Origin: Marsupella aquatica
Lineage: Eukaryota; Plantae; Marchantiophyta
NCBI GenBank assembly: GCA_973895155.1
Contig: OZ316891.1
Location: 21,899,168-21,963,167, forward strand
Length of the DNA: 64,000 bases
Direction of reading: 5' to 3'
Shown here: piece by piece, positions 963-64,000 of the stretch
Numbering within the stretch: position 1 is the first letter of the stretch
Layout of the letters: each line of letters begins with the position of its first letter
The notes under the pieces: model-generated
Seen by the model: the letters and a program-made list of their open reading frames with translations, nothing else
Told to the model about the DNA's origin: nothing
Databases searched by the model: none
Made by a program: the position numbers and the translations under genes

Positions 963-1029
963 ACTAACTCTATAAACCCGGTTAAGACAAATCCAAGTGT
1001 GGATAAGTTGGTGGAATTGGATAATGTTG

Positions 1030-7364: not shown

Positions 7365-7429
7365 TGGGAACCACAAATTGGTCCTAAGTTGACCAGGAGG
7401 GAGAGATGTTGCATGCATCAATTCTTGAA

Positions 7430-8530: not shown

Positions 8531-8551
8531 AATTGTGAGCTGCTCAATTAG

Positions 8552-18529: not shown

Positions 18530-18550
18530 CCTCTTATGAAGTTAACATGA

Positions 18551-22931: not shown

Positions 22932-23075
22932 GGGCCACCGCCGATAAGTTTTTGGTGTCATTATCGAGAGTAGAGTTTTGGGAGTTGTGTTCTTGGAGCA
23001 ACATTCTGTCCGTTGAGCCTTTCGTTTTCCCTGATTGTGGGAGGAATGCAAAGCCCCATAGTGTCTCGGATAGCC

Positions 23076-26000: not shown

Positions 26001-26599
26001 CAGATCGACTATGGTGGGGTCGTTTTTTTGACAAACAAAAAGAAGTGATTCAGCACCACCTAAAACCTGCACAATGGAGTTTTGATTGGAGTTGGCCCAA
26101 GGTAAACGTACAGAGAGAACTTCCGAGTAATCCTACGGAAGCAGCAATGGAATCTAGCTTGGTTGATAAAGTAGCGGGTGTGAGGACAGTCATGTATTCT
26201 GGAAGTCGAAGAAAAGTCACGGAAATTGGAGACTTCAAGGATCTAGAGGTGAATACTAAATTTGCAATGATATGTGTAGCAGCCCATCAGGATCCCAAGG
26301 GAAGACCATTCTGGATGGCAAAAGTGACTGAGATTATCACAAGAATTAACGACATCCCGGAGCGGATTAAAATCACTTGGTATGCAATGGATTCGGAGGA
26401 AGAGTCTGCAATTGAAGGCAGATATTATCCGGAGAAAGAGGCTTCGTCTAGCAAAGTACTGGAGGATGAATTGTCCCTATCAGAAACTCCCGTTTATGCG
26501 TATAACTTTGCGTTATTGGCAAATAGTACTCTCCCTATACAAACAAGATGAATCATTCAAAATGCAATGGAGACTGTAGTCGTTGATAGTCGAAGCTAG
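23076..26599 (+). pseudogene. DDD-type transposase (Sola1/DUF7869-like), 2 exons (23076-24723, 24990-26599), three in-frame stops
   Basis: CCDNYC and FSTCAPC Cys motifs; catalytic-type IDGMDQ, LQLDNTARENKN, FLLVGHTHDQIDQMFS. A GT-AG intron restores the frame. Stops at 24576, 24717 and 26549 are consistent with C-to-T changes. Confidence 0.8.
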
Positions 26600-26927: not shown

Positions 26928-29900
26928 CTAATCTAATAACATGTCGTTGAGATCATCCTCATTTGGTGTTCTGGGAGGCTCTTCCTCAGTTTCTTCTTGT
27001 TCCTCTTCGGTCTCCTTCACGACCTCAACTACGTAAGTCGATGTCCCGAGTACACCCAATTGGCCTGCAATTGGTGGTTGAATCTCATGACCTTCAACGC
27101 CGTGCCCTTCAATCTGGGATTCTTCATATAAATTCCAGTTTGACTCCAGAATCATGATCCGGGATTTTACAAAACCAATCTGCGCAGAACTCTTATCAAC
27201 AGCACAACCCTGGCAAGAATTGAGGAGCGTAGCAGCTAATGTCAATCCGGTTCCACAACAAAGATCAATAACCCAATCCTCTTTCTTATAGAAATGGGAA
27301 ACAAACCAAGCCCCTAAACCAACAGGCTTCTGATATGGGTTCACAACAAATCCCAACGGATCAACGGACTTCTTGGTTACACATGGAACCTTGATGATAT
27401 TGACGCGAGACTCATCCGGTTGGAAATTGTACATGTTCATGTTCCGAATGCCTTCCTCGCTATAGAAACCTATCGACCAGTTCTCAAAACCCCACGCCAA
27501 TCGAGCTCCAGCGGGACGCTCATGAATGTTAGTCTTCTCCCAGATTCCAGCCTCGACCCCACAGTTGCATACACTCTCCAGTGCAGACATCACCATATGC
27601 GTTTGTTGTAGTGAATGGATCACAACAAACCTCCACTGCTTAGCGGTCGTCATCTTTGAGAAACTTGTCAACATGTCTAAAATGTCCTTTTCTGTGAAGG
27701 CCACTTCATCAAACTCCAAACCAGGAGCATTAAAACCATACGAAATATCCGCAACCGCAAGGGTGTAAGCCCTTGGCTGAACAAAAGAATCCAAAATTCG
27801 AACATCACCAACATGGAGATAGTAGGGAAAAGAATCCCCATCTGCATTTTTCCATGTTTGTTCAAACGCTTCTGCTGTGCCCTCGCCTAAGGACCTCAGC
27901 CGATTGTACTTTTCGATTGCAGCAAGCACAAAATTCTTAAACACATAAGGGATTTCAGCTGAGGGAACAATAACCTCCCCCGCAGAATTATAAGTGACAG
28001 CCAAAACCACTTTGCTTTTCCTTTTTGAATTAATCTTCAGTTGTAAGAATGTCAGACACATCTACAGTTAGAATAGCGTGAGATGAATGCTAAGGCCGAT
28101 AAAAATCTCGCGATGGAGCACGCTAGCCAATAAATGGAATCGCTTAGAAACCAACAAAGGAATGCTAAAGCCGATAAAAATCTTGCGATAGAGCATGCTG
28201 TGAGAGGAATGCTTACCGCGTCACTCAATTTCTCCGCCCATATGCCAAGGACCAAGACATCTGTTTCGTTGGGAAACATTTCTCTGCATGTTGCCCAATC
28301 TGGCTGACCAGATATCTGCAAAAATAGTTTCTTCACCTTGGCAAGCTTTTTCAACTTCTCACCTTCCTTGTGCATTTGATCCAAAGTGATCACCTTCCCG
28401 ATAACCCTATTCAAGAGACGCTTGACATGCTCCTTATTTGACAGTCCTTGGAGACCTTGAAATGAATTTAAGTTGAGGTCACCAGCAAGTTTATTCATTT
28501 TAATCTCCCTTACCGTCAAAGGTTTCACCTTTCCCTTTGCGTTCGTTGTTGCCACAATTTTTTTGGGTTGTCCTAAGACAATACCTTTCTCCCACATCTG
28601 GAAAATCTGCTCCTGAAGATCCCAAATTTCACCTGTTCGGAAAGCAATTTGGAAAGCCGGATCATGTTTGGTGATGGAGTCACGAACTCCTGGCGTGTAC
28701 TCCATCATGCATTCTTGACAACATGCTTCGTGGACATCTTTAGTCGAGCCCACACCCATTTCAAGGAAAATATTGTGACAAGCGCGAACTTGGTCAATTT
28801 TAGTCATGTTCTTTCGATACTCCTGGTCATAGTTATGCTGGAAGCCTAACTTTCGGACCTCGGATCTCGTAAGCCCAGCGTAAACCCAAGCTTCCAGCTC
28901 ACCATATATTTGCTTCCCGTATATTTTAAACAACTCGGACTTTGCCCGAGCACCATGATTCCCTCCAATAATTCTATACTTCCATACCCTTGACTTCAGG
29001 ATGTCCCAATCTGCGGTTGTGGGACAATCCTTTGGATCCACACACAGCACGAACGGGGCACTGAAGTTGGTGGGGTTTTTCATGAGAAGTATCTTGATAT
29101 TTTCCACATGCAATCTATCCACTGGTCTAATCAAAGTTGTCAAATCCCCCTCCTCATCAAATATGAGATTGTCGACATGCAGAAGCACAGTTGTCCTTTG
29201 CACCCTTCGTTGCATCAGAAGACTGAGCTCTGCCTTGATCGCGTCCGTCTCATACATCGAAAGAGCCGTCTCCTCCTCCTGATCAGCCTACAAAAGCGTT
29301 GCAAATTCAATTAAGGAAAGAAACTATGAGATTTTTATCGGAGTTCGCATTTGTTCAACATAACTCCACAATCCACAATTCAGGAAATAAACAGCGAGAT
29401 TTTTATCGGATTTCGTGTTTGTTAAACAGTACAACGACGTAGTACTTACCAATGGCGCCGTAGGAACCGCGACTGGAACTGATGGAATTGACGGAGCTCT
29501 ATCTACTTCTGCAGCCACCATCTCAGTCCAGCCAGTCCTCTTCCTCTTTGTGCTAAGTCCAGAACCAGATGGCCCGGATCCCTCGGATCCTTTACTTTCG
29601 CTTGGTTTAACGGATGGTCCTCGATGGTTGCCCCGGCCTCTCCCACTACCGCCAGTTTCCTGGCTCTTCTTCCCACCGTCAGAGGTTCCCGCGGCATCTC
29701 CCCTGCCGCTACCTCTCCCTTTCCCTTTTCCACTTCCCGAAACCCGACCAGAAGTTGTAGGTTCGTCCACGTCAATATGTGTAGAGGATTGCAATGGTTC
29801 TTTCCGCCCCGATATTTTATCGGCATTAGAACCACCACTTCCACTTGAACCTGGTTTCTTGAAAACAATTTTGCGGACAGGTTTGAACTCTTCACCCACA

Positions 29901-30418
29901 AGTCTCTTGTACTCTGCGTTTACCCTTGGAAGCATGATGGCATCACAATCTTGCACATACTGGCCGATCCAAGCCGAACCCATAACATTCATCTCTCTTG
30001 CTGCGTGAACATCGGCAACAAGGGGATCTTCTAGATAACTGTCCATCGATTTCTCATCAAAGGTATCGAGAGTAACAATGAGAGATGTGAAACCCTTGCG
30101 CCCACACATTGTCAAGAAACTAAGGCCCTCTGTCAACACTTTTCCCTCCCCGTGGCCAACCATGAACTCGACGACGGCAACAGCAATGACAGGGCCATAC
30201 GAAACATTAACCTTCGTCCATTTTTGCAACTGGACCCAAAGGATTGGGGTAACACAGTCTTCGAAACCCGTGGACTGTAATCTGGCATCACGGAAGTACC
30301 ATGACTTCTTGATACACTTGATCTCTTCACAAATGTCTTCACTTGTCCAAATTGCATTGGTGAGGCTTGTCATGAGACTTTCTGCCTCAGCAGATCCACT
30401 CTTTCCACTAGTAGCCAT
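26928..30418 (-). CDS. ~1050-aa ParB/Srx-like + beta-class amino (N6A/N4C) DNA methyltransferase-like protein; exons 30418-29450, 29287-28217, ~28034-26928
   Basis: Phase-0 GTAAG donors join three ORFs in frame; the last acceptor is weak or mutated. ParB-like RPVD..HV..I, YRIIGGNHGARA. MTase LHVGDV, LAVADISYG (motif IV), IWEK, NPYQKP, VIDLCCGTG, CAVD. Confidence 0.75.
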
Positions 30419-30638
30419 GGAAAAGTCTGCAAATAAACAAATTCCAATGCAAAGAGCGATAAAATTATCGCCGCCAATCTCACAGCACATGTGGACACGA
30501 CATCTCATCACACAAGGACAAAGAGACCGATAAAATTATCGCAAAAGTGAGCCTTCTTTAAATTGACGGCCGAGTGTATAGGTCGAAGAATCAGCTACGG
30601 AACCCTAAATCCAAAACCTTAACCCCTAAACCTAAACC

Positions 30639-43753: not shown

Positions 43754-45747
43754 TATAAGCATTCAACAGGTGCGGATGTGGCATAGGAGCGACTGTGTAT
43801 AGAGTTGTGCATAGGAGTAAAGTTACATCATCAGTTATCAGTCGTTTCCATTAGTTGACCTGATATCAGTCGCCACATCATCTCAGAGAGGCCGCCAAGA
43901 TGCAGCGCCGAAAAAAATAATGAAAATTCTCAAAATTTGATGAAGAAAAAAAAACTTTTTTTGAATTTTTTTCACTATGGGTGTCCGTACCGTACGGGCA
44001 TCACTTCTCGGCGGGGCCAGCCGAGATGGCCAGGTGTCCATAAGGTACGGACACAAAATTTTGGCGATTTTTTTTTAATTTTTTAATTTTTTCTGTTTTT
44101 TTGTCCGCATGCCGATCTCGGCGAGGTCAGCTGAGATTGAGTCAATCTCAGCCGCCTAGCTGAGATGCATGGAAGTGCAAAGTTGTCATCTTAGCTGCTT
44201 AGCTGAGATTAAAAAAAATTGGCGGAAAAATTGATAATTGATGATCCTCGCTACTCCCGTGCATAGCATCGTTTGAATCATGTTTGTCGTAAGCTTGTTG
44301 AATGTGAGCTTGTGGGACTTGTTGCATTCCTAGAAGAAGAGAAGTTTGTTGGTGTTGTTGCAATTGTTGTCGATCTTGTTGATTTTCTACAGAGCTCAAA
44401 GAGTTCAGCAGATTGGACATGCTGGCACTGACCATGCAATGTTACAATAGAGTTTATAGGAGGAGAACATTTCCGCTTTTTCTTCCCATACACAACCCCT
44501 TGAGCTTTTGCCTGCATTTTGTGCACTTCTCTAACATATAGACGGACAAGTTGAGCTCCAAATGGGTTGGACTCAGGCTTTCCTCCGTGCTCTTTGAATC
44601 CAGCTTGGAGAGGCCCTATCAGCGCATTGAGAGAACCCCAGGCCTAGCGCAGTGGGCACCGGCAAGGGTTGGGAGGGCGTCGACATCCCTCAAGTGACGT
44701 TGCTTGTTGTGCAATCCCTGTTGTGTTGTTCCTGGAGCAGCAACCATCACTCCATATACATCCGTGCACATCCACTGGAAGTTTTTAGACTCACTGATGA
44801 TGATGAGACTTTTGAACAAACTGCTCTTGCAATCCAGTGCTTATGCGCGCATGCAACTGTGATCAATTTTGTTGTCCAAGTGATACCAGGCCTACGGTAA
44901 AGCTACGATACTCCTCCCTCCTCCTACCCTCCACCTCTTCCTGTAGGCTGTAGCAATAGGCTGAAAGAATGTGTCCAGAGAAGACCGCAGCTCCCAGCAA
45001 ATGGCTATTCTAATCCAGTTGTGGAGAATTTTATACGGTACCTCTTGTGCACCTGTAGAATGTGTTTCTAGTTTAGTAAATTACTACCATGGCAGGCCAC
45101 CCTACCTTAGGCGGCTGCCTCCTCCTACAGTAGACCTCACAAACACAAATTTGACCTTCGATCAGTCTATTATGGGCCGAATGTGCTCCTTTGCGAGTCA
45201 AGAGAACTATGTTTGGCTCAAACATTTTTTATCTCTTAATCTAACCATATAATTGATTTACTCTGTGTTTGGCTGAAGCATTCTTTATTCAGCCATAATG
45301 TAACTACACAATTGGTGCTTAATAGTTTCCCTACTGTTGCAACTGCAGTAGCTGGAACGCTATCTAGCCTGGCTTGGGAGAATGAGCAACACGCGAGGCC
45401 CAGAACGAGCCAAGCATCGAACAAGCCAAGCATCGAGGTCTTGTTGTTGAGTTTATTGTTAGTGTGGAGGTAATTAATTTATATTTGCCTGCACAAGGCT
45501 ACCTTGAAAGTTCTGTGAGATAGAATGATGTTGTGTTGCTCATGAGTCTGAGTCAATGCTCTTTTGTTGGCTATTTGACATGTTTATATTGTTCAGAGTA
45601 TGTATTGGAGTTCCTTGTAGATTGGCTCAATCTAGATAATTTTATTGATCAGTTTTAATTTTGCTTAATATTGGTTATTACGTACCTTGAAGGTACTAAA
45701 ACAATTATTACTGGAAAGGTAGTGTCCCACCAACACTCTTTGCAAAT

Positions 45748-46983
45748 TTGGCAGAGGTAGGCCATTCATGCTTAGCAGAAATGGATTTAACTGATGGAAT
45801 CCATGGTATTGGGAAGAGTCATAAAAAACATAAAAATATTTGGATGAAAATACATTTTTCAGAGGGATATCAAGATGCAGATTTCACAGATTATAGTGGC
45901 ATCAATACCAATGATGAGATAGTGATAGCATTGAAAGAAGGTTTTTCTTTGGCCCAAGATGCAGCTACTCTAGTTCAAATGAACCCCTCCACATCATGCA
46001 GAAATTGTATGTGGTGGACATCACCTTGGGCAGTAGAGGCAAAGCGAAGGGACCAAGGAGGTTGGTGTGACATTATAGTGGAGACTTTGCCTGTGGAAGA
46101 CCAACCTGAGTCAGAGCAGCAGCCACATCTTGTGGTGGGCTCCTCTGCTGCTGTTATTACAGAGGATATAGTTGAAGGAGATGGGGTGGCGGATGAAGTT
46201 ATTGCCCAAGGAGAACTCCAGGGAACTATCCGTGAATTGTGTGCTGAGTTGAATGAAGGTCCAGTAGTTCTTGGACAACCCAAATGGGTTCCCATGGTTA
46301 GTTGTGATAATTGTTATATATACAGAAGTACATTGGTGAGTCAACTAACTGGAAATCCTAGTCTTAGTAAGGATCGATTAACCAGGGTGAAACAGAGTGT
46401 TTATTTCAATAATCTGGTTGATAAACGATCAGATCAAGAAGGGGTTCCAACAATGTTCATGTCTTATGGTATGGACTGTGGAGTGTATTTTGTAGCAGAT
46501 CCACAACCTGGTAAAGAAACCAGGTCTCAAGGTCTACTGAAAGCATTGTCAAAGAACGAAAAAGGACAACCTACCTCAACCTCTGGAAGAAAAGTTTCAA
46601 AGAAGGGAGGCAGAGGTGAAGCTGTGTCTGTAGGATCCATTCCAAGAGTGGAAAAGTATGTTTGGTGGATTGGAAGAGTTCAAATGATTCGGAAAAAATA
46701 TATCAACAAATGGGGAAGATGCAGGGAACCTATTGACTTACTTGATAGGCCTGGCAAAGTGGATGATGGATCAGCTGCGTGTGAAGTACTGTTCAATTGG
46801 TTCAGTCCCTGTAGTGGGAGAACAAAATTTTGATATGATATGTGTGATCCTCAATGGATTGATTTGGACTGTGTTATATCCATAGTGAGCCTTTCAGTAG
46901 CTCCAGCTACTCCTAATGTGTTTGTCTTGCATGATCATGATGCAAGTTTACTTGATGATTTTGTAAAGAACAAGATCATATGA
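45748..46983 (+). pseudogene. C-terminal part of a large TE-encoded protein (probable transposase remnant)
   Basis: 361-aa ORF continues in frame past a TGA at 46831 to 46983. Conserved-looking blocks TLVSQL..NPSLSKDRLTRV, WWIGRVQMIR, WIDLDCVISIV. No catalytic core seen. Confidence 0.5.
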
Positions 46984-49900
46984 AGCTTATTCACCAATGT
47001 ATTGGTGAGTCACTTTCTTTTGATTGAATTTGCAGTCATTTGATGTCAGTGTGACATGATTTCATATGTAAACATGTAGCATTATATTGTTGCAAACTCA
47101 TGATGTGCTGTCTCAACAGATATATTACAACAACCAGGAAACTTGAATGGTGTATGAAGTTAGCATTCATGAAATTGCACCTGATCTTAAAGTGAGTTGT
47201 CTCAATTTTGTTTATATTCATTGTATTCTTTATGAATGTTTAAGCTCATCTCTAACATACTCTCCTAATTTTTTGCAGCATACGCAACAACACAATATCT
47301 GGTGTAATAGTTGAACATCATTTGCAACTGATGTGTAGTTTAGGGACTGTCACTAGTCTCCAAAACAGGTGCATGAGTAGTCCATAGAACTTGTGTAACA
47401 TCATCACATGTGCTTTGATAATATCTGTAGTGTAAAACTTGTGCAACATCATGACATGTGCTCTGATAATATCTATGTAGTGCAGTGTAGAACTAATTGT
47501 GCAACATCACCACATGTGCACTTGTTAATTATCTTTGTAGTGTAGTGTAAGGATTAATAGTAGTCCATACATTGAACAGATGAAATAGTAGTTGTAGGAT
47601 ACATCATATAAATATCCCATAGTCACAAGTACAAGTACACTCATCATGTGTCCTTACAAGCGGCATTTTATAATGAAACAAGGGTATTTTTATTGAGTGT
47701 CAAAAGTACTTATAAACTACTCAAGGGAGTTTTTAATGGATGAAATTTTTATTATTATAATTTTCAAGGATATTTTAAATTTGTAATATGAAAACTAATA
47801 AGGGGTACTCAACATGGAAGTGTTCACAGGGGTATAAGACATTTTAGCCTAAGTGATTCCCCAGGGTTCCCAGCATTAATGGCCGTACAATACGAGAGGT
47901 CCTTACATACCGGGAGTTGCGGTTTAACAAGGAAGTTATCAAGTTAGTTATTAGTCATTATTTATTATATGAAAAATACTTTTTATAAATCTTCGAATTT
48001 AAGTTTTAAAATTGAAAATGTAACTAAAATGGTTACATAGTGACAGTTTTAACCGTCTTGCTCTTTGCATTTCCAATATTTTTACTTTTCTTTTTACGGC
48101 ACGGCGTCCCAAAATTTACACCCAAATTGACACAAACATGAATGAAAACTATAAGTTTGATTCACAAAACCGATGAGTCTTGTTTGTTATGGTTGTTGTT
48201 GACATGGCACTTTGTGGTGCCAGGAATTTTGGAAGGGACCTCTAGTGGGGTCCGTAAAAAAGGTGGGCGGTTACTCGGGGTAAATAAAACTGAGTTGCAA
48301 GCCTATTCAGGGTAAATAAAACAGTTAATTTGGATAAGTTTTTACATAGAGGTTTACGGCATGGAGTCCTCAATTTTACCAAAAATTTATCGCAAACACG
48401 AATGTTGGCGTAATTTCATTGTAGAAACTAATCCGTTCCTGTTTGCAACACGCCATAATGATGTGACGCGTTTTGGAGTCAGGAATTTTGGAAGGAACCT
48501 CTAGTGGGGTCCGTAAAGAAGCCACCAATTTAGTGCTGAAAATCAACAAAAACAGCCTGGACTTCGTTGCAGAGGACTTCCAATGGCTCCACAGACTGAG
48601 CGGCCTTATTTAGAGCACGCTTAGCGTTTAGAGTCAACAGAGTGGTCATTTGAATGTTCCAGAAACGCTTGTCTCCAATGTAAACCTTTTCTTGATCGAG
48701 TAACAGTCTGAAAAGCTCAGATCTCGGACTAACATTATGGTACAAGCCGTACACACCCTGCGCCAACAGTTCCGAAGCAGTTGGGGTGGTCGTAGGCACA
48801 CCTGTGGCGGCCTTCGTGTTCTTCAACGGTCTGGGCACAAGATATCAATTTTAGACGGGAGCAAAGTTTAGTCTGACGTGTGCCGAGGAGCAAGGATTCG
48901 ATGCACCTTCATCGTGCCCGGCTTACCGCCATTTTTCTTGAAGCAGTTGCCACTGCCAGTAGCACCGTGCACACAAAGTAGCTCACACTTCTGATGGTAA
49001 TAAAATCACGAGAAAATAACGTGCCCTCCAAAAGCACCCCAATTCAGATATGTCACCTCGGTTCATCCCAGACCAAAAGTTTCTTACCGCGGATAGAAGT
49101 TTCTTACGAATGTAAACAAGACACACTTCTTGCCCATCAAGCTTAGAACTGAGAAAAGCATGCCAAACAAGAAATGGACTCTTATCTCCTAAGTGTATTT
49201 TTTAATATAGGAAGAAGTGATTCTTGCCAATCGTCACTACAACATATTTTGCCCTTTTGCAAAGCTCATTTGAGTTCGGACACATGTTTGCGATTCCAGA
49301 TGCTTCAAACCGTTGATGACTCAATACGCATCGCAATTTGCGATACTTGTGGTATCCCAACTTTGGTCTTCCATGCGATTTGCATCGCAAACATTTTGCA
49401 AACTTTATTGTATCACAATAGTTTGCGAAATTACAGAGATTACAAAACACATTACGAAGGCTCCGCGATCGCCCCAAAAGTCCAAAACCACAGTAACATT
49501 AATGATGCGAAACAATTAGTATTGGAGGATGTTTGTGAAAAGGTTAGCTTCAAACAATTTGCGATGGGTTTGTATGGAAAATGTGCGAAACGATGTGGAT
49601 GGTAAAGGTGGGATGGTCTGGATATCGCAAAATAGTGAAGCGTATAGTATGGAATAATTGAGAAACGGTTTAAATGGCAGAATTGCGATTTGGTTGGGAT
49701 TTGTTTAGTTTCGCAAACAGTTCGCAAACATTTATGTTAGACTTGTGTGTGCATCTAGGTTAGAGTTTGAATGGGGGAGGAGGAGGGAGGGAGGTGAAAG
49801 GTGAAAGAGGGAGGAAGGGAGTTGGAAGGTGGATGAGGGACGGAGGAAGAAGGGAGTCCAAAGAGGGTTTACTAAAAATAGGAGAGACTTTAGCGAAGAG

Positions 49901-50134: not shown

Positions 50135-53100
50135 TCACACTTGGTCACCTTCAATGTCCTCTACATCTGACACAAAAATAGTGTCTGGCTTGTCTGAAAC
50201 AATGGAACGAGACCGTGGCACATATGTGATGACAAGTGACCACTCTGGGTCTAAGGGGTATGGAACGTAGAAACATTGCTCCAAGTGAGATGGGAAAGTA
50301 AATGGCTCTGACGTTTGCCAATGAGATGCTTGAAAACTAGTGGCACTTGTCCTCAACCGTGTAAACCCACTCTCATCTTGGAGTACAGTGCGATTATTAC
50401 CAACAAGGTTCACTTTGAACCACTTGCACTTGAAGACATACTCCTCAAACTTAGATTGGTTGTCATATGAGACCACCAAAATCTCCTCTATCTTCCCATA
50501 GTGTGGCACAACATCACGAACAATATTCCTGTCATGTCGGCTACTCCGGGAGTCCTGACAAAACTGCCCTTGAACTCCACAATCAAAAGTACGAGCCCTC
50601 TTCTGATCAAGGGAAGAAATCCTGAAATTAACAAGACCCATATATTGTTACTACTACACAAAAAACACTAATCATGTTATGAGGAACCTTTCATACCAAA
50701 AGAGAAAAACACACTTATCTAAGTAAAAGGATTACTATATCTTAAGTAGTAGTACATGAATATGGAAAACAAGGTTAGGAACTAGTGAAACCTGAAGTGT
50801 CTCCCTTGGGTCCACATGGCCGTCTTGGATGTTACCACTCTCAAAGGGCCATGAACAATGGTCCGAATGTCATTTGTCATAGTAGGAAACTGTGAGACAT
50901 CTCCTCCTTGTGCCAAAATGCAATCCAACTCAACCAACTTTTCCTTCATAAACTCATGCAACTTAGGAAAAATCCTTGCCCTTTGACTCATTCTTTTGGC
51001 ATTGTCATAAAACTCCCTCCATTCATCCATGACATTGCTATTACTCAACATGAATGTATTCAACTGTGTCCACTCTGTTGATGTAAGCATGCATGTTTTT
51101 GTTGCTCCTGTTAAACGGTCCTCCTCCTCTTGCCTCTCCTCCATCCAAGTACGTGGTAAAGTCCGATCAATGGTGGCCAAGATGTTACTACAATAAAACA
51201 TGCTCTCTGCAGCCAAGTATCCTGTAGCTATGCTTCCCTCCACTCGTGCACGATTACGTACATAAGCCTTCAAGACTGACATGTAACGCTCAAGCCAGTA
51301 CATCCATCGACAATGAACTGGACCAGCAATGGCAACCTCCCTCACAAGATGCACAAGTAAATGAACCTGACAATCAAAGAAGGAAGGAGGGAGGGCCTTC
51401 TCCAACTTGCAAACCACCTCAGCAGCCAATACCTCCATTCTAGGAATCTCTTCCACATATATCTCCTTTGAGCATATCCATCTCAACAAACGACCCAATG
51501 ACCAAATGGCATCTTGCACTTCTTTGGTCCCCAACCCTATAATTGCCACTGGCAATATATGCTGCAATAAGCGGTGATAGTCATGTGTCTTGAGATACCG
51601 TGGCCATTTGTGATTGTCCTCCATCCCAAAAGCTTTCCTCAAATTGGCACCATAGCCTGTAGGAAACCGCATCTCCCCTATACGATTCCGGAATTCACGT
51701 CTTTGGCCAACACTAAGCACCCAAGGAGTAGAAGGACGATGTTCCAAACCTGTGGCAGGATCAACTTGTACCCATACATCTGGATGCATTTCCAACTCTT
51801 CACATGCCTCCCTGAAGTTAGTGTCCTTCTCCCCATAAAAATGAGCTATCAACGCCTTCCCCACATTTCCCTCTATGTGCATGGGGTCTAAAAGATGGCG
51901 GATCTTCAACTCTGACCAATAGGGCAAACTGGCTAGTATACTCCACCTCGTCAACCCAGTACCATCAAAGGTGAGGGGATCATCAGGGTCTGCCACCCTA
52001 TCAGCTAGTGACTTCCAATGCCCAAAAGTTGTTGGTTCCGGAATTTCCCGCATATCACCAAGGGGCATGTCAAAGGAGGAAAATAAAAGTGGGTCAGACC
52101 TCATCTCATGCCCCATCGGAAGAAACTTTGTATGCCCAATGTAAACAATCTTCCTAAGCCATGGGGACCAAATTGCCATATCTTGCAATTGTGGACCACA
52201 GGTGGAGCAAGCTTTGTACCCCTGAGTTTGCAATCCAGAGACAAAGCCAAACCCTGGTTACACCAAAAATAAAACCAGACTAAATGTTAGGGTTGTCACA
52301 TGACAAACAAGTATATTAAAGAGCATATCAAAGAAGGGTGGCATATGGTCAAAAAGTCATCTTACCAGGATAGTCATGCATTGTCCAACAAACTACCCCT
52401 CTCAATTTAAATACACGTGGAATGCCTCCTGTATTTTTCCTGCCATCATATGCCCACACTCCACCCCATAGTTTTTGGAGTTCTCCAATCAATAGTGCCA
52501 AATAAGTGTCAAAGTTCTTCACCTTTTTTGGACCTGGAATAATCAAAGACAGCAAGAGGAACCCCTTCTTCATGGATAGCCATGGTGGAAGGTTGTAATT
52601 CATCACAACCACAGGCCAAACTGATGTAGGTCTTCCCTTGCCTCCAAGGGCATGAGGACTAACCCCATCAGATGCCAATCCCAACCTCACATGACGAGGA
52701 TCATGTGCAAAGTCTGGCCATGTTTCCTCAATATGTTTGACTGCAGGAGAGTCAATTGGCAACCGCATAACACCAGGCTCTGATCGATGAGTCTTATGCC
52801 ATACCATCAACTCTGCCAAATCAGAACACCTGTACATGTGCAACAACCGAGGAATGATGGGAAACCAACGAACAGCTTTTCTTGGCACCTTCTTTGTAAT
52901 CATGTTGGGGTCATACCGTGGCTCATGACATTCAGTACAATGTGTCTTCTTCTCATCGGCCCCATGAAATAACATGCAATCATTCACACATGCATGAATG
53001 ATATGATATTCCATGCCAATTGATGAGAGAACACGCTTGGCCTCCTTCCAAGTTCCTGGCAACACATTGCCAGAAGGTAACATAAGGTCATGGCAAAGTG

Positions 53101-54849
53101 CAAACATATCAGATAACAAGGCATTGCTTGCCTTGTGTTTGGCCTGTAGATTCATCAACCCCAAGATAGCAGAAAGACGACTCAAACGAGCACCCTCATA
53201 GATAGGAGTTCGGGCATGTTCCTCTGCTTCCTCCCATTGGCGCTGTCCCTCGGGGGTATGTCTTGGTCGTGGATCATTGGGGGGCACATGACCTCCTTGA
53301 TCAGCAGACACCTCAGCATCATCACCAGGGACGTCAACACCAAACCAATCAACCATAAAATCATCCATGGCTCTATCTTGGTCATCAATAACCTGTTCAT
53401 ATGTTCTGGGTACATTGCGATCAGGGTTGTTGCTTCCACTATCACTTGATGAGGAATGTGACTCAGAGCCTTGTCCTTCTTTCGGCATACCCATTTCCCG
53501 ATATGCTGCTCTCAATCTCCGCGGTAACATATTTTGAGAGGGTCGCACATTCTAAAAACAATGCAAACAATTGAAAGTTACAAAGCAAATAGTTACAACA
53601 TGTAGAAGAATATATGGGGGTGTGCAAACATGAAATGATATCGGTACTAGTGTAAATACAAAATGTGGCCAAACACCATGTGTATGGTCATTTTCTAATC
53701 CCACACATAGTGAGTAAACAACTCATCACCTGAGTGAATGGTCCTAGTAGCTACAACCAGACAATGGTGAGTCATGATGATATGTCTGGCCATAAGGGGC
53801 TGGTGGAGGACCCTCAATGAAAACCCACTCACAATTTTGCCTACGCTTGGGGCGAGTCCCCACAGTACTATTTATGAAACCAGCTATATTCCCAGTTCGT
53901 ATGGGGTCCCCATCTATCACCCGCTGCTCACTATACCTCCTAGTGTTTCCATCAAAAGTATCTAACTCCAAGGCATAAGTCTTCCACTCAGGATGTTGTG
54001 CAAGGATCATGTTCCAATGTCTTCTCTTGTAGATGGGTCCACCATAAGGAAACAACGTAGGTCCTTCTCGACCGCGTCCACCACTACCACTCTCGGTATC
54101 CACAATGATGTCTTCACAAGCAAAAACTCCATAGCCATGTCTATCCCCAAGTGTGGAAGGTTTGATAACCCAACGTCTTCCCCAAACCTCTACCTCCTCA
54201 CCATAGGAAAGCTCTTGTGGCAAACCAAGAGTCTGGGGATCCCAGTCCTTGATGATAGGAACACATCTGCCAGTAAACTCACAATCACCCCACCTACCGG
54301 TAACCACTGCCTTGTACAAATCAGTATCCCCTCGGGGCCGTCTCTTGGAACGCTTTCTCCCTCTTGGGACAACAGGCTCACCCCCAACTGCCCTAGGACT
54401 GGAGGGGGCTGTTGCTAGACCCAAGGCTTGTGAGAATGCATTGCCTATAGCATCTAGAACACCTTGTGATGGGACATAAGGTGCTGATGCCGCAGGTCTA
54501 GGCCTACTAGATACCTATTCCACCCAAACCAAAACAAACAACAAGAGGTGTGAAATTAAAAACCTTCACCATTGCGATGTGGAAATAGGGTAGAAACTAA
54601 GGCGTAAACACTTACCACATGGGATGAGGAAGCCCCTGTTGTATGACGTCCGTAACGTCCATATCTCTCAATATGCTGGGTGCATATATAGAACTTTTGG
54701 GAAACCTGACCCACGCATTTGGCACATTGGCAAAGCTGACGGGGTGGACCACGAGGAGGAGGTGCAGTCGTGTGAGGTTGAGGAGGAGGTGGTATATCTT
54801 CATTGGAGGAGGAAGAATCTGTGGTGGAGATCTCAGAAGATGAAGACAT
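50135..54849 (-). CDS. CACTA TnpD transposase; exons 54849-54616, 53551-52366, 52253-50792, 50621-50135
   Basis: CQCAKC...HIERYG transposase-associated domain; IHACVNDC, RLGLASDG, YNLPPW, WTMHDYPG, LDPMHIEGNV, LKTHDYH, FFDCQVHLLVHL, WMYWLER, FKCKWF, EPF. All splice phases are compatible and there are no stops. Confidence 0.9.
53695..54514 (-). pseudogene. SET-domain exon within intron 1 of tnpD (one 1-bp frameshift near 53770)
   Basis: IKPS..G..GYGVFACEDI, FPYGG, YAL, IDG...GNIAGFINS, NCEW; after the frameshift, LVVATRTIHSGDELFTHY..stop at 53695. Phase-0 AG acceptor at 54515. Confidence 0.8.
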
Positions 54850-56105
54850 TGCCCCTACAAAGATGTATAATTTTCAAGTTAGGGGTTATTACCAAATAAC
54901 ATCACAATATCAAGCTGGACAAATGTAAGTTCTCAAGTAATGATGACATGAAACCAAACACAAAAGGAACACTAAAAAATACCTTTATGAGACCCAGGCT
55001 CAGCGGTGCCAATAGGTCTTGTGGCTCTAAAATAATGAACCAAATCTGGAAGTATGAGAAAAGCTGCAAGTACACAAAGCGAACACCTTACATACATGTC
55101 CTCTTTATAGATAGTGGGAACCAAAAATTTTAATTACATGAATAAGCCTAACTAGACCCATCTATTTTAGTCCGTACCTCCAAATGCCCGGGCTCTCACG
55201 ATGCATACGCATTAGCTAGTATCAATTCATGCAAAAGTGCCGCACCCTGCAAGTTGTCATAGCTCCTCCTCCTTTGTTAGCATAAAACCCATGGAAAAAC
55301 CATTAAAACCCAAAAGATCCATAAAACCCATGGTAAAACAACTAAAACATTAATCTCATCTAACCTTGCTTTGCCTTTTCCAAACCCTCACCCCCAAACC
55401 TCTGACCTATTACAAAAACCTAGACCCTCACTCCCAATCCCCTTCCTCTCTTTTGTTTTAAACCCTAAACCCTTGCTTGAACCCTAAAAGCCTACAACCA
55501 TAAATGCAAACCCTGCTTAAACCTTCCGTCTTTAATTTTGGGTTTAAACCTTCCGTCTTTAACTCCTTCCGTCTTTGGGTTTTGGAAGACTGGTAATCTC
55601 GCTTTTAACCCCTAAAAAAACCAGCTTCATCCAAGACCCAACCCTAACAAACGCCGGGATTTGAAACGGCGGAATTTCTTAATTACACAAAAGGGCATAG
55701 TATAACTTACATGGCCTAAACAAAAGGAGGAGGGAAAGAATGTGAAAATGTTTTTTGCCAGGAATTGCCACGATATTGAGAACCGACCTGCTTCAGAATT
55801 TGGTCACATTATTTGCGAAGCAAAATGTTTTGCAACAGCTTCGGAAAAACAAAGCCCAAGAGCATTTTTTTGCGTCTCTGCAGCTTTGCGAAGGCTTTGC
55901 GAAGCGTGTGGTTTTGCATTGGTTTTGGAAAGTTGAGATACTAGTTGCGAAGCGGGCTGATTCGCAAATTGCGATGTGGACTGAGTTGCAAATGTGTTTT
56001 GTCTGGGCATTCGGACCTTCCCGCCGGGTTACGAGGCCCATTCGACATTTTTTGAAGTGAGGGAGGGCAGGAGGAGAGCTTGCGCGCGCTTGGTGTTGGA
56101 TAGCT

Positions 56106-56498
56106 ATGGATTCTAGTGGAGGGCGTGGAGGGGATGGGGTAGGGGCAAGTGGGAGTGGGAGTGGCAATGGCAATGGAGGGAACAGGAATGAGGAGAGTAA
56201 TCAATGGATGAATTTGATGGCCGAGCATCTCAATGCCACACAGCTAAGCCATTTGGATTTGAGTACACCAGTTGGGATTGCTTCTTTGAGTGCAATTCTA
56301 GGGCAAGCTTTGCAAACCGGGGTTGCAGCAGGGCAGGCTCAGAGGGAGAAAGAGGCAAAGGCTGCAGCTGAGGAGAGGCAAAGGCTGCAGCTGAGGAGAA
56401 GGCCAGAGAGAAGAAACGAAAGAAGGAGGAGAGGGCTAAGGCAGGAGTACTCTCTCCTACAGCCCTCGAAAAGAAGAGGAGAAGGGAGGAACGAGATG
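56106..56498 (+). pseudogene. 5' part of a divergently transcribed CACTA ORF (TnpA-like position), truncated
   Basis: ATG ORF facing away from tnpD; a 23-bp tandem duplication (56352-56397) shifts the frame; cut by unit X. Confidence 0.45.
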
Positions 56499-59400
56499 AG
56501 GTAGCACTGGTTAATTGCGAAAGGACAGCCATCACCAGGGATTCTAGCTACAACGAGCTGCGAGACTACATCACCGAACTATATCTCAGCGAGGAAGGGC
56601 TTAGATCGGTAGTAGAGGCGATTCTTGAGGTTCCAGCGAAGTTCTTTAAGCTGAAGGGCAACCAGCGGCTTACTCAAGCGGAGTTTGACAAGATTCCGGG
56701 GTACCTAGACCAGCAGATCGCAGCCGAAAAGCGCCAGGAAGACATCAGCAGACAACGGGAAGCGGTGCGTAATCTCACATTCCTCGGGGAAAGCTCCAAC
56801 GCCTTCAACTGGGATATGGCTACCCTGATACCACTAGTGCCTCAACCGACGACCACCGGAGTACCACCGAACCAGTCCCAAGTCCGTCCAGTAAACAACA
56901 CGGAGTGTTCTTCGGGTTCCGAGCGAGCTAGTCCACAACTCGAACAGCGTCCTCGTAAGCGGCCAAGGACTACGACGGCCCCCGAATCAACACGGACCGA
57001 CACCGCGCCTGTGCCCGCCCCGGCAAACCCCCCGACCAACCAGACCCGACGGCCCCCGGATAACCCGAAGTCCAACTTATTACAGGTAATCCGCGTCCCC
57101 GAGGTAGTCTGGATCGCGATCAAGAAACTTGAACATGCGGACTATCTCAAGGAGCATCAGTTGGAGCGGTTCGCCCACTTGCTATGGAGGCCGTGCGCCA
57201 CCGGGCCGAAGGAGATTTATGAGTTCATCTCCAATTTTGACACTGACGCGTCAACCACCAAGGTTTCGGGGCAGGCCTTATCACTCACGGAGCATCGGTT
57301 AACGCAAATCTTCTGCCTACCAACCGGGCCGGTGCCGGTGGAAATCCAAATTTGGGATAAGGAGTATACGCCGCGACACTTCAAACCCGAGGGTAAGACG
57401 GACAACGGATACAAGAAAGGGGCGTGCACCAACTTAACTTGTATGGAGCTCGGGGGGGTCACTATATGGAGGGTCATACATCGCGTGCGACGTTTTAGGG
57501 TTTGACCCCCCTAACTTTAAAGTGAAAAATATTTTTTTGCAAAGCCCTTTCTTTCTTAAAATTTTGTCATTTTTTATTAAAAAACCCCTAAAAACTTTAT
57601 AGAAAGTATTTTTTGCAATTAAATAGGCCTATGTGTTCTTTAAAGTCGACCAATCAATAAAACATGCCCTATGTGTTCTTCCACCAAGCTTTGGAAGTCT
57701 TCCGCCACACCCATTTAAATGGGCCTATACTTCGTCGCACGTGATGTGTCACTTCCGTGGAAGTGACCCCCCCGAGGTATGGAGCGGCTTAACTTCATAC
57801 GGACTACCCTACACATGATTGAGCCACGATCCGAGATTTCCCTCTGCACGATCGTGCAGGTAGAACAGTACAAACGACGAAACTGGGCCCAGTTCTTCTA
57901 CCAAAGATTCTCGAGGGAGCTGAAGCGGGCTCAGGGTGGTATGGCTATTGGGGGGAAGACTTACTTGGGAAGTCATATCGCCATTATCCTCACCTGGTAC
58001 AAGGCACGACGGGAGGCCAGAGGAAAGAATATGGCCACCTCAGCCCCGGGTAATGTCACCCCCGCCCCAAAGGAGGCAACCCCGACTACGCGGACTACCG
58101 TCCCTCCGGCAAACCCCAAGCCGGAAGCCCCGACTAATACTCCGCCACCGCCCCCTATGGAAATTCCACCGCCCCCTTCCGTCGAGCCTCCGCTACCCGC
58201 AGTACAACCACCCCCAATCCCTCCACCACCTGAAGAGACCTTCCCCTCCCCAGCGCTGACTACGGAGGAGCTCATTGCCCCTGCCGAGGAACCACCGGTA
58301 CCCGAGAGGATGGAGGACTACCAAGTAGCCCCGGGGACCATGGCCTACGACCTGGTCCAGAAGTTTAGCCAGACTATGTCTGGGGAGCTGGCGACGTACA
58401 TCGGACAACAAGTCTCGGTGTACTTTCAACCAGCCTTCTTCATGTTAGAGCACCAACCACGGATCGTAAGCCGCCTGGAAGAAGAACTCATGGCGAAGGG
58501 GAATGAGATCAGGCGCCTCCAGATGTTGGTAGAGCACCTCGAGGAGGAGGCAACAACCTGACGTGAGGAGTTAGTCTGCACCATCGAATAGAGGGACAGA
58601 CTAAACCAGGAGTTAAGCGGAGCGCAGGTCGAACTCAAGAAGCTGGATGACACTGTGCTTCAATTACGCTCAAAATCTTCGGCTCGGGTTACCAGCCTGA
58701 CCGACCTCAACAAACAATTCTTGCAGGCAGCACAGCAGGTGGCTAGTCTCTCCGCCGAACGAGATAAATTGCTAGCGCAGGACCAGGTCCATCGCGACGC
58801 CATCGACCAGCTCAACTTGGAGGTAGTGCGGCTCCAGACCGAGGCCGATGAAGCTACAAACGAGGCGGAGGAAGCAGTACGGGACAACAAGGCTTTGCAG
58901 GACCGCATTACCCTGCTCATCCTCCAGCGGGGAAAACCTGGGCCCACCTCTGATCAAGGCGGCTCAAGGTCTCGTCCCGACAAGGGGACCAGCCCTAGTC
59001 CAACCACTGCACACACGTAAGGGGTAGTTAGCGAAGGGTGGAAGCAAGCGCCGCGCGAGGCAGTTAAGTCAGCGGCATCTTTTGGTTAGGCGTAACGACA
59101 GAATGATGTCATTAGGCGCCGATTAGCGGCAGTAAGAAGAATTAGGGCTGGATCAGTTAGGATTAGCCAACGTAGGATGGAGTCCATCAGCGGACTAGAA
59201 TTTGTCAGTAGGATTGGCCGCTGCCATCCCGGTCAGCACCTTGTCGTCGACGGTCAACCAGCTAGTCAGTAGGTAGTAGTCAGTAGGTAGTAGTCAGTAG
59301 GTAGTATCCCAGAAGGCAGTATCCTTTGGCTCTCCTCCGCGATTGTAGTATTTAGGCTTCCCCTTCCACTAAGGAAGGGGAGAAGGCTTAGTTATCTCAG

Positions 59401-59996
59401 CAGAGGGAAGGTGAGGCACGGGGAGTCCCGGCCTGAGCAGGGTCAGAGTGCACCAAGGAGTGAGAGCCAGAGTCGAGCTTGCTGGGCAAGTGCGAGGCAG
59501 GGCCTCGTAGAGACTAGGCATCGACTGCCGTTGGGCATGCTGACCCCCTTTGAAGTCGAGTCAACCATGTAAACTGATGCTTCGTTGAGTAAATGTAGTC
59601 TTTTCCCCCTAATGTTTCTGCAAGTAACTGGTGTTGTGTGTATGCTTTGTCTGGGTAAAGGCGCCATTTTAAGGGACGTACCGGGTGCGGACTAATGGTA
59701 GGGATTGCCACTCATTGTATGTCACAAGGTCCTGTCGTGTCGATGGCTTGAAAGGCCCCAAGCCGGGAGTTAGTCCGAGTCACTAACTGAGGGAATATTC
59801 CAGCGGTGGAAAACAAATATACCTATGACTAGTACGAATTATTCAGGTGTTATACCGGTAAGTATATCGACTTAGCCCGACTTAGGGCTAATTGAGGTCA
59901 CTACACACCTCCTTGCCCGAACCCTCACCCTTACTGGTGGTCGAGGTCGCACCATGGCACTAAACTGGATTTAAGGCCCAGGTTAGCGGCGCGACA
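56499..59996 (+). mobile_element. Unit X copy 3 (ORF on plus strand), missing its first ~660 bp
   Basis: Reverse-complement match to 1030-4185; ends GGCGCGACA at 59996; ORFs 56765..59020 match copies 1 and 2. Confidence 0.88.
57449..57776. mobile_element. MITE, CTCGGGGG-TIR family, 8-bp TSD
   Basis: TSD gtatggag (57441-57448, 57777-57784); TIR ctcgggggggtcact / agtgacccccccgag; related to 13458-13755 in opposite orientation. Confidence 0.9.
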
Positions 59997-60744
59997 CCTT
60001 GTCTCTCTTTATGTGCAATAGAGACCACAGTGGAGAGTTAAGAAGAAGATAACATCTAATGTCACTTGCATGGGATAGTTTCTCAAGACAAGGCCAAAGA
60101 ATTGTTAGAAGAAAATTATCTCCACCATTGGCATGCGTGTAGGGCACTGGAAATAGTCCGGTCATGCTTGGGTTGGCAAATGCCTTAAGGGGGGAGTCAT
60201 CCACAAGGAGGGTGTTGGTTTCATCATATAGATTTCCAAATCCACTCCATACCACCCGAAAATCCTTCAGTAGCACATTTGCCTTTCCGTTTGTAATGTC
60301 ACACCTTTGAATGCCTGTGTCAAAGGCTTCCACCTGTGTGAATACAAACTTAAGTTTCAACCGCTCCTCAGCAGTGAACATCATGTTCAGCATTTTCACT
60401 GTTCGATGTACCCCAGCACATGTCCAAATTGCAACGTCAAATCGGTCAAAAACCAACTTTAGAAACTCATGGAGCCCTGGCCTTTCTGTGTACATGCGAC
60501 TAATTCCATTTTTTCTATCCCAATGCACTCCAGTTGGGGTCACAACATTTCTGGATTTGCCCTTGCTTTGGAATTCAACTGAATCCCAAAGTATTTTGTT
60601 AAGATCCAAAATCAGCAATTTGCGCTTGATGGAACAAAGTCTTGGTTCTGCAAGTGCAACAAATACCAATCTTAGAGAAAAAACCACATTTGAAGTTTGG
60701 ATAGAGATCATCTCTGTCAACCCAACACAAGTGGCCAACCACAA
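59997..60744 (-). CDS. NIF/FCP1-like HAD phosphatase-domain protein, C-terminus cut by unit X
   Basis: KLLILDLNKIL, ERPGLHEFL, FDVAIWT, LLKDF..VW, NTLLVDDSP.K...NP. The 5' start is uncertain (probably spliced). Confidence 0.8.
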
Positions 60745-60899
60745 AGAAAATATATCTGCATACTGATCGTATTCATTGAGAAATCGTAAAGAGGAGATGG
60801 ATATTGATACTGATGCTCTAATTGTTAAACTTGAAGTATAATTATACAGACTATATTATATCAAATTGATAAGGTCACATTGCTCAATCTAGACCTTGG

Positions 60900-63800
60900 T
60901 TAACAATGCGATCCATATTCATCAATCAAGATATCATCACCGAGCTCTTGTTGGATCTCATAATTGACATCGGAGGTACTCTCCTCTATCCAATAAGGTG
61001 CAGACCAAACCGGAGTTATCAATCCCAATTCTCCACTTCTATAAGTTGGATCTTTCTTGTGCTTTTTGTACGAGTCATTGTTCAAAATTGATTGAGCAGC
61101 ATCCAACGCAACTTCAGTTCCTACATCGGGTCCACTTTTCCACACGTAACATCAACAATCATATTCAAGTGACTTATATCCAGTTGATCCTACTCTCTTC
61201 CCTTTCTTTTTTGAGAGTGGAAGGATAACGGGACTTCTTGATGGTGATCGAACAAACACCAATTTGTCATCAGAAGCGGAAAAGAGTGTATCGGGACAAA
61301 TTGAAGCACCTGCCTGGTTGTCAGCAGTCGTGGATGCACTTGCTTCATTCACGGGAATGTCAGCTATTTGGATGGGCTGCGGTCTCAATCCCAATGTGTC
61401 GAGTTCATTGGACTCACCATGCCTCTCCGCACCTTGATTGAGAAGGTTGTTTGAAGACAGTTTTTCAAATGTATCAGCTTCCATCTCTTGTCCAGGCAAT
61501 TGTGGATGGAGACCATCTCTATCCAAGTTATCATCATACTGGCCCTCGTTGGGTCCCATGGGGGCAACATCTGTAATTGGTGAACTGCAAGGTGCAGATC
61601 CAACAATCATATCGTCTTCCACAAGGTCAATATTTTCACCCTCGCCAACTCGGTCATCCAAATTCTTCACGTATGCCTCCTCCGATGGCCCATCGTCTTT
61701 GACTGATTGGTCAGCTCCATCTTCTTGATCACCATCTGATTCATCGTCAATAGCAACAGCGGCAGAAGAGGGTTCCCAATGTCTAGAACTTCCACCGACA
61801 TAGCGATCATAACGATCTTTGATGGTGGGAACCTTCTCACAAAGGAACGAAGCATATGCTTCCACAAAATGTCTCTCATGTTGAGAGTCACAATAAACAA
61901 AACATTCACGTTGAGAAAAAAGGGATGCCTTCATCACTTGACCGCCAGAGAAAAAGTCAAGAATCAAATCCCCCAGCTCAGACAGTGTTTGGATGATCTT
62001 TTGGATCATCCGTGTGGGTTTGGCGTGAGGATTCACCCACCCACCCCGAGCGCCGACCGTCTCAAATCGAGGTGCCATGTGCAGAAGTATTGCCGCCTCT
62101 TCTGGGGTCATCATATTTCTTAGATCTTCATGTAATGACTCCTCGTCCGCGCCCTTTGCCTTTTCCTTTCCCTTGACCTTCTCAACCACGAAATCAGTAT
62201 CCTTTTCACCATACACCCATTTTGGCTTCATCTGGTTGGGCTTGAACACTTCATCCCAGCTGACGTTCTCTTCGCGAGAAATTCCCGCAAAGATAACTTC
62301 TTCTATTCCTCCCTTCCAACATGAGTCGTGAGGGTGAGGTTGATCATCTCGGTAATAACTCCCATACTCAATGTGAATAGTCAGAGTTTTTGAATGTCCT
62401 AATTTACAAAGAGCGCTTAGGACATTCAGTACAAGGTAACCCGGATGGACAGTTATCATCACAACAATGGTGGGATTCCGTGGTAGCTCTACTATGTATT
62501 GGAAGAGTACCAAAATCTCTGCTTCGGTCCACTCCTTCTGTTGAAGTCGGCTGAAATCAACAATTGCAAGAGGGCATGTTGGAGATTGTTCTTCCAACAA
62601 CTCCGGATCGACTGTCTTCATTAGGTTGTTACTAAAAAATCTGACCCACGGTTGGGTCCGAGAACTTGTCCCCCCGCCAAACTTCTGACAGTAAATATCA
62701 TCTAGACGCATCACCAATGTCATTGGCAATATCTCACTCTCCTTTGTATGATTAGACTTCAATAAATTTGTCAACCATACTTCACCAGCCGCTCTTCGGC
62801 ACCTGTTCAACTCCGACTTGGCACCTAACAATGGGAGGACCTCAATTACTTTAACCCAATCAATATCTGCTGGGAAGTTTTTCGGATCCTTCTTGAAGTA
62901 GTAATCTCCAATAAGAGACTTCAGTTTGATCAATATCTTCACCTCCTTTGCAAAGTCCTCCATTGCTGGAACATCTGACTTATTTGTCGGATCCTTCTTC
63001 AATAAAACCTGACCTGACTTCACCTTGTTCAAAATTCTGGTCAAATCTCTACTTGATATTTCACCATCAAAACAACGAAACATTGCGACCGTTATACCCT
63101 TTTCGGACCTTTTGTTTCCCTGTGTACCAGCTCCATGAGGAAGATGTCCATCAATCCACATCTGGCACACTAACCGCCAGAGCTCGAAAAGATCATTCTC
63201 GGCAAAGAGCAACCAATATACATTTTTCAAGTCTTTCCTCCCCATGGTCATCCTTGCCAATGCCAAATAATCCTATAGTCAAAATTAGGGGAAAATAAGT
63301 TATCTACAATCAATGAGATTTGACAACAAACTATCACTTGCTTGTTGGACAGAGACCATCTCCATCCAAGTCATAACTAAAAGTAAAAGGAAGAGAAATC
63401 TCTGGAATGGACGATGACACTCTTGGACAGAGATCATCTCCATCCAAGTCATAACCAAAAGTAAAAGGAAGAGAAATCTCTGGAATGGACGATGACACTC
63501 TTGGACAGAGATCATCTCCATCCAAGTCATAACCAAAAGTAGAAGGAAGAGAAATCTCTGGAATGGACGATCACACTCTTGGACAGAGACCATCTCCATC
63601 CAAGTCATAACCAAAAGTAGAAGGAAGAGAAATCTCTAGAATGGATGATCACACTCTTGGACAGAGACCATCTCCATCCAAGTCATAACCAGAAATATAT
63701 TGAACTAAAATCAATGTAACGGACGGTCACACTCTTGGACAGAGACCATCTCTGTCCAAACAAGAAAAGTGTTTCTCACCTGAAATTTTTTATTTTCTTG

Positions 63801-64000
63801 GGCGTTTGACTTGTTGTCCCCGTGCTTTGGCTTTCTTGGTCCTCTGCATTCAAGGAATTGTTTCCTTGCATGAACAATTGTATCTTTGAAGCACGATTGA
63901 AACACCATCGTCAAATTGATGGCATTTGATCTCATTGAGTGCTCAACCAATATAGCCGATGGTGTAAGGTCTGACAATAATCTAGACTTCCTGTATTTTA
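60900..64000 (-). pseudogene. Divergent homolog of the ParB-MTase cargo gene (5' part outside the window); exons >64000-63780 and 63272-60900, one internal TGA at 61152
   Basis: Phase-0 GT-AG intron 63779-63273. Blocks align with the 26928-30418 protein (HARKQFLE~ACHNIFLE; VCQMWIDG~IFQMWEKG; RILNKV~RLLNRV). MTase NPHAKP and LILDFFSGG. Confidence 0.65.
63345..63757 (+). repeat. 78-bp tandem array (~5 units) in an intron
   Basis: ttggacagaga(c/t)catctc at 63345, 63423, 63501, 63579, 63657 and 63735; the fifth unit is divergent. Confidence 0.9.

Follow-up and report, generated by a model that had tools for sequence, protein, structure and literature searches.

A SET-domain exon lying inside a transposase gene raises the question of whether it belongs to the transposon, whether it is translated together with the transposase's own first exon, and what such a protein would do. 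Such an exon is found in a CACTA element in the 64,000-nucleotide stretch of Marsupella aquatica DNA analysed here (the window). A sequence-only reading had earlier proposed that one exon is spliced either to the SET domain or to the transposase TnpD. The evidence below points to a CACTA family of peat mosses and liverworts in which a single zinc finger exon is predicted to be spliced to SET or to TnpD, and in which the SET protein is likely a lysine methyltransferase favouring the element. We give this reading, taken as a whole, an even chance.

The element is a CACTA (En/Spm) transposon: it has terminal inverted repeats, subterminal repeats, the three Pfam domains of TnpD with an N-terminal Cys/His motif and, in its relative L032, a 3-bp target site duplication. 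L032 is complete, about 9.9 kb long, and has the gene order of the window copy; both CACTA ends are present, the 3' end slightly degenerate, with ACA duplicated on each side. In the window, a high-depth contig begins at 49235, the position of the CACTACAAC end. The density of subterminal repeats is 12-18 per kb at the ends versus 0.2 per kb in the background, for a motif set that was picked by eye. The coordinates of all features are given in Table 1.

Table 1. Features of the CACTA element in the window, ordered by position.
Feature	Positions	Strand	Description
3' terminal inverted repeat	49235..49265	-	CACTACAAC on the + strand; 32-nt match to the 3' end of L032
Subterminal region	49235..49800		TCGCAA-type repeats, 10 motifs in 566 nt versus 5 in 20 kb of background
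TnpD exon 4	50135..50621	-	DUF4216; stop at 50135
TnpD exon 3	50792..52253	-	End of Transposase_21, DUF4218
TnpD exon 2	52366..53551	-	Transposase_21; phase-0 acceptor TAG/AAT; codons ahead of first Met conserved
Spacer, SET stop to TnpD acceptor	53552..53694	-	143 nt
SET exon	53695..54514	-	Linker, then SET domain; stop TAG at 53697-53695
Insertion specific to the window copy	53767..53771		4 bp; shifts the SET frame ahead of the catalytic Tyr
Intron, exon 1 to SET exon	54515..54615	-	101 nt, GTAAGT...TAG
First coding exon (exon 1)	54616..54849	-	234 nt, 78 codons; ATG at 54849; CxCxxC-x13-H Zn motif; phase-0 donor
Putative spliced 5' UTR	54850..55260	-	Inferred; AG 5 nt ahead of the ATG; donor-like sites near 54983 and 55090
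TCGCAA-type repeat cluster	55700..56000		6 motifs in 300 nt, between two divergent genes
Divergent third gene, start	56112..56500	+	No Pfam family

The repeat cluster upstream of exon 1 is a possible set of promoter binding sites for an element protein. Beyond it begins a divergent third gene, whose homologs have the same orientation in L005, L007, L010, L032, L033, L036 and L008 (in L032 at about 7000-8900, minus strand); this conserved gene is a candidate TnpA analogue. In the window an unrelated repeat cuts into it at 56500, and the 5' end of the element is missing. The repeat is about 3-3.5 kb long and present in three window copies (56499-60004, 1028-4183 and 19531-22034) that are 85-88% identical. 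Its frames, proline-rich and coiled-coil-like, have no confident Pfam assignment, and no matching flanks were found at the copy that cuts the third gene.

The splice signals described earlier for this locus are all present. Exon 1 ends in GTG/GTAAGT at 54616, in phase 0, and two phase-0 AG acceptors follow in frame, ahead of 54514 and of 53551. With the second acceptor the intron would be 1064 nt long, and joining exon 1 to 53551-52366, 52253-50792 and 50621-50135 gives a TnpD of 1122 residues with zero internal stops, in line with the intact TnpD noted earlier; full-length plant TnpD proteins used for comparison have 1085-1134 residues. With the first acceptor, translation would instead enter a linker with a basic, NLS-like run (RGRKRSKRRPR) and then a SET domain. 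This domain has the motifs GYGVFA, PYGG, GFINS, NCEW and ELFTHY and its own stop; the frame is open through GYGVFA, PYGG and GFINS and changes near 53770, and ELFTHY and the stop lie in the other frame. The GxGVFA, FINS and ELxxxY motifs agree with the earlier description. The window chain ends ELFTHYVWD, and in close relatives, too, the protein stops three residues past the catalytic Tyr.

The transcript likely begins upstream of exon 1, which would then be first only among the coding exons: an AG precedes the ATG and donor-like sites are found farther upstream. A branch point and a polypyrimidine tract, perhaps together with a poly(A) signal, have to fit into the mere 143 nt from the SET stop to the TnpD acceptor, and the terminal exon of the earlier proposal is a putative one. 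The spacer is similarly short, 136-147 nt, in 25 metagenome loci and about 219 nt in L001.

In the window copy the SET product is broken, while the TnpD frame is open. A frameshift had been reported here; it is real and amounts to a net +1, but it is caused by a 4-bp insertion at 53767 and not by a 1-bp indel. The SET frame with the insertion terminates at 53746-53744, upstream of the Tyr in ELFTHY. Near-identical sister copies free of the insertion were found as contigs in all four sequencing runs, one of them otherwise identical to the window.

How general is this layout? We collected 40 metagenome loci, 28 with a complete SET end, three with a truncated SET and nine that end inside the SET exon. 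TnpD comes next after SET in 25 of the 28. The contigs of the other three stop 114-228 nt past SET, and one of these, L001, still has AG/AAT; the loci with a truncated SET (L021, L034 and L035) continue for more than 4 kb without TnpD. Phase-0 splice sites are conserved at the exon 1 donor in 20/20 loci, at the SET acceptor in 21/23 and at the TnpD acceptor in 23/25. Since most of these copies belong to one subfamily (mutual dS about 0.06), the counts represent about three independent lineages. Further, the introns diverge while the donor and both acceptors stay, and DNA homology with L010 ends at the exon edges. The layout is not due to chance, since diverged relatives show identical splice dinucleotides and phases.

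The same picture is seen at the protein level. The named proteins closest to the window SET are from Calypogeia fissa (74%) and Sphagnum, and NCBI gene models, which may be ab initio, join exon 1 to SET in Calypogeia (P0001, 351 residues) and in five Sphagnum species (343-348 residues). A profile search for the SET family gave 125 clusters at 50% identity; 20 were looked up, and the nine with organism names are from Riccia (8) and Calypogeia (1). Atlas names the SET-family clusters SET, and all are Streptophyta where this is recorded. Distant Riccia proteins retain finger and SET, and in P0201, from a 2141-nt Logan contig, both are in a single frame of 423 residues. In a tree of 50 rows the window copy groups with Calypogeia P0001 and P0002 (99/89); the tree contains family members only, without outgroup or short fragments, and says nothing on origin. 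Pattern scans, which detect close relatives only, gave no SET relatives among 99 candidate stretches in viral contigs or 86 in prokaryote genomes.

The SET segment is thus not unique to this copy: it recurs in the metagenome loci and in the 125 clusters, and the order exon 1, SET, TnpD is family-wide in mosses (Sphagnum) and liverworts (Calypogeia, Riccia). In three Riccia models (P0071, P0263 and P0264) SET-family sequence is joined to TnpD, and TnpD sequence is present in 7 of 224 proteins screened. No longer SET fusions were found among 5475 candidates in a search that can miss fusions, as P0071 shows.

A few other observations were made in these sequences. In the Sphagnum-type copies L014 (2903-3056) and L015 (2627-2774), TnpD exon 3 is split near residue 200 by an additional gap of some 150 nt, likely an intron that is absent from the window copy. 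Elsewhere in the window, a frame of 706 residues on the minus strand (61152-63272) has a weak match to N6_N4_Mtase (E 1e-4), or PF01555, the family also of the methylase of PAG2 discussed below. Beside it is a NIF-phosphatase-like frame (59983-60855, minus strand; E 9e-16). The two are possibly cargo of another element, and neither has a match in any of the 40 CACTA-SET loci. The window also contains a tandem array of six 78-nt units with internal inverted symmetry (63267-63837), an open frame of 377 residues without Pfam match (45700-46833, plus strand), and several open frames of 377-564 residues (26931-30535, minus strand; 22974-26548; 16850-18541, minus strand).

Next, we consider whether exon 1 serves both products. 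Exon 1 alone has no Pfam match. However, it was described earlier as a Cys/His transposase-associated domain, and comparison with known transposases upholds this. Among plant TnpD matches 79/119 have an N-terminal CxCxxC...H, with the 13-residue spacing of exon 1 in 60 of the 79. Against a profile of TnpD N-termini exon 1 outscores all 200 shuffles (HHalign 92%, E 6e-7), and of 11 other SET-family N-termini nine score above all shuffles and two do not.

Further, dN/dS is about 0.1 over the 23 codons that open TnpD exon 2, seven of which precede the first Met. TnpD is therefore conserved from the acceptor onwards, ahead of its first Met, and likely needs an upstream coding exon. Inside the SET exon we found no phase-0 donor common to the window and all five loci scored, using a crude weight matrix, which leaves the donor of exon 1 as the only phase-compatible coding donor found. 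Given this shared phase-0 donor and the stop of the SET exon itself, two mutually exclusive products are the simplest reading, and we think it quite likely that both junctions are used. Among the bryophyte gene models in the 120 matches listed, none joins exon 1 directly to a full TnpD. The earlier proposal of exon sharing is thus partly supported, by conserved phase-0 sites and by the homology of exon 1 to the Zn motif of TnpD.

The listed contig joints from four runs of unknown kind contain no match to either predicted junction; these contigs cross introns and have no bearing on splicing. One CT..AC joint in run X3 (54483-54610) was considered as a splice and rejected: it is off the predicted sites, comes from a divergent contig and is gone at 90% likeness.

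The SET exon could alternatively be a nested gene in the TnpD intron, with its product made from a start codon of its own or from unspliced transcripts, so that exon 1 would not be shared. In Sphagnum-type copies an in-frame Met is indeed found four codons into the exon, where many database proteins begin, and the SET product of these copies could arise without exon 1. In the window, however, the exon has a phase-0 AG and yet no Met within its first 170 codons, the SET acceptor is retained in three lineages, and finger and SET recur together in the distant Riccia models and in P0201. We regard a nested gene as quite improbable, and continue with a shared exon 1.

To assess selection we calculated dN/dS by NG86. 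For the SET core the ratio is 0.17-0.24 between the window and 21 loci (bootstrap 0.09-0.26, one pair), for exon 1 0.08-0.13 (18 loci) and for TnpD 0.09-0.16 (6 and 4 loci); all pairs include the window branch and are hence not independent. The SET core is under purifying selection between lineages, and the neutral evolution that would have spoken against a function is not seen there. Among the metagenome copies the ratio rises to 0.82 in SET and about 0.6 in TnpD, which fits copies that decay once inserted.

It is these high values among sister copies, together with the broken window copy, that would fit a captured host gene fragment carried neutrally, as in Pack-type elements. This is largely refuted and in our view very improbable, given the ratio of about 0.2 between lineages, the depth of the family (125 clusters at 50% identity), the lack of the usual His after Asn in the motif matches (see below) and the linkage to TnpD in three genera.

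The SET exon product is predicted to adopt the SET fold. An AlphaFold model of the relative P0009, built on a 92-row alignment, has a pLDDT of 93.7, while a single-sequence model of P0001 reaches only 33. When compared with known structures the P0009 model matches Set1 with Z 12.2 (rmsd 2.5, 124 aligned), and Set1, EZH2, SET8, SET7/9 and LegAS4 are tied (Z 12.2-11.3); Foldseek finds SET8 with E 3e-7. Matches among viral structures are generic SET folds. At the sequence level the signal is weaker: Pfam finds SET in 65 of 92 members with borderline scores (13-27 bits, cut-off 22.4), and a narrow profile (A2) finds no PDB sequences while a wide one (A3) finds 72.

In most SET enzymes a post-SET segment closes the cofactor pocket. 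This segment is absent in the window copy and its close relatives. The position of the F/Y switch is occupied by small residues in the family alignment, which would allow multiple methylation. The residues expected for catalysis are in general conserved: in the 92-row alignment G is found in 76/78, N in 85/92, E in 74/76 and the catalytic Y in 71/74. The His of NHxC is an exception, being replaced by Ser in 89/91 rows; among 168 motif matches in fetched family proteins the residue after Asn is never His and is Ser in 156. The FINS that was noticed in place of FINH in the window is therefore no peculiarity of this copy.

Since Ser replaces His across the family and the post-SET tail is missing, the SET domain might be a pseudo-enzyme or reader, made by the same splicing, that serves as decoy or adaptor by binding methyl-lysine or a methyltransferase complex of the host. 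Inactive SET and PR domains do exist, and the H/RxxNHxC motif is thought to be important for SET activity (PMC4146578). However, even rows of as little as 23-30% identity retain the GxG that contacts SAM, together with the Asn and the catalytic Tyr. Neither is loss of the His fatal, since LegAS4, which reads YINFS in its sequence, is an H3K14 methyltransferase (10.64898/2026.05.29.728679) and activity is known for several PR domains that lack the usual residues (PMC4146578). We find a pseudo-enzyme unlikely, and an active SET enzyme somewhat probable.

If the SET protein is an enzyme, its substrate has to be considered. None can be read from the structural matches, as the top ones are tied across H3K4, H3K27, H4K20 and H3K14 enzymes. 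In the mechanism that we propose, the transcript of the element would be spliced in two ways, the long form giving the transposase and the short form a finger-linker-SET protein of about 350 residues that methylates lysines. Methylation would most likely occur on histones at or near copies of the element and would keep the element active by counteracting silencing. Through the shared finger the enzyme may be anchored to TnpD or to the DNA of the element, and nucleosomal DNA may be bound by the basic run ahead of SET.

A precedent for the general scheme is Spm, which makes a regulator and a transposase by alternative splicing, and TnpA acts against silencing in Arabidopsis, according to the available parts of 10.64898/2026.08.24.746577 and PMC13547354. 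That the SET product works on chromatin to benefit the element is possible, at a little less than an even chance. More tentative, and to us doubtful, is a stronger version: that an old bryophyte CACTA lineage makes its own active histone methyltransferase, of a previously unnamed SET subfamily without His and post-SET segment, and uses splicing as a switch between jumping and chromatin rewriting. Among land-plant transposons it would be the first to write a histone mark against silencing.

An active enzyme might also methylate something other than histones, such as TnpD, the third element protein or a host silencing factor, and serve as a TnpA-like cofactor of transposition. An N-terminal finger in common suits co-assembly with TnpD, complexes of TnpA and TnpD from Arabidopsis have been modelled (PMC13547354, in the part available), and the structural matches of P0009 include the non-histone enzymes SET7/9 and SETD6. 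We hold such a substrate to be rather improbable: most of the top matches are histone enzymes, and a basic, NLS-like run ahead of SET is found also in LegAS4, where it engages nucleosomal DNA.

If the histone reading is true, a transposon-encoded histone writer would be a new anti-silencing route in land plants. The plant anti-silencing factors VANC and TnpA are sequence-specific regulators, and the available parts of the sources describe enzymatic activity for neither; in bryophytes, transposons are marked by both H3K27me3 and H3K9 methylation, again according to part of the source. Further, hundreds of annotated Sphagnum "SET domain-containing proteins" would be transposon products that inflate SET gene counts; one 90% cluster of Sphagnum SET proteins has 360 members. 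The family is also a natural test of what SET catalysis needs in the absence of the His and the post-SET segment.

Finally, we compare the element with known systems. We found no paper on a bryophyte CACTA element with SET, or on an intronic, exon-sharing form in land plants; Repbase Reports and bioRxiv supplements were outside the search and may describe the family. The family SET domain is predicted to have the same fold as LegAS4/RomA, SET8, Set1/MLL, EZH2 and SET7/9 (Z 11-12, rmsd 2.3-3.0, 124-134 aligned). LegAS4, likewise without His, is the best sequence-profile match (E 1e-7). However, identity to these enzymes is only 16-29%, and the family has neither a post-SET region nor ankyrin repeats. 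As the ranks of the known enzymes are tied, neither origin nor substrate follows from them.

Other transposons carry SET domains too. In Phytophthora a SET gene is found in HarbingerS and MuDR (PMC12730594) and in Helentrons (PMC4067079). These belong to other superfamilies and have oomycete hosts, and SET is a separate ORF; exon sharing is not described in the portions available of these papers. Another case is the accessory gene PAG2 of Plavaka in red algae, with a SET domain on an element of the EnSpm-related CMCT clade (10.1101/2025.02.11.637652; PMC12730594; both in part). There, as far as the available description goes, SET lies in a separate gene and is fused to an N6-adenine methylase (PF01555), whereas here it is predicted to be joined to the zinc finger of the transposase, and no PF01555 was found in the SET-family proteins.

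Maize En/Spm and Arabidopsis EN/SPM3 share several features with our element: going by the available parts of the sources, they have CACTA ends, the TnpD domains and one unit that gives a transposase and an accessory protein, as is predicted here. "SET domain" is not mentioned in the main text of 10.64898/2026.08.24.746577 or of PMC13547354. In En/Spm the alternative product is the DNA-binding TnpA, while here it would be a SET-fold protein, encoded upstream of the transposase core and inside the first coding intron. It is this intronic position and the predicted sharing of an exon, in a land-plant CACTA element, that set the feature apart from other SET-carrying transposons.
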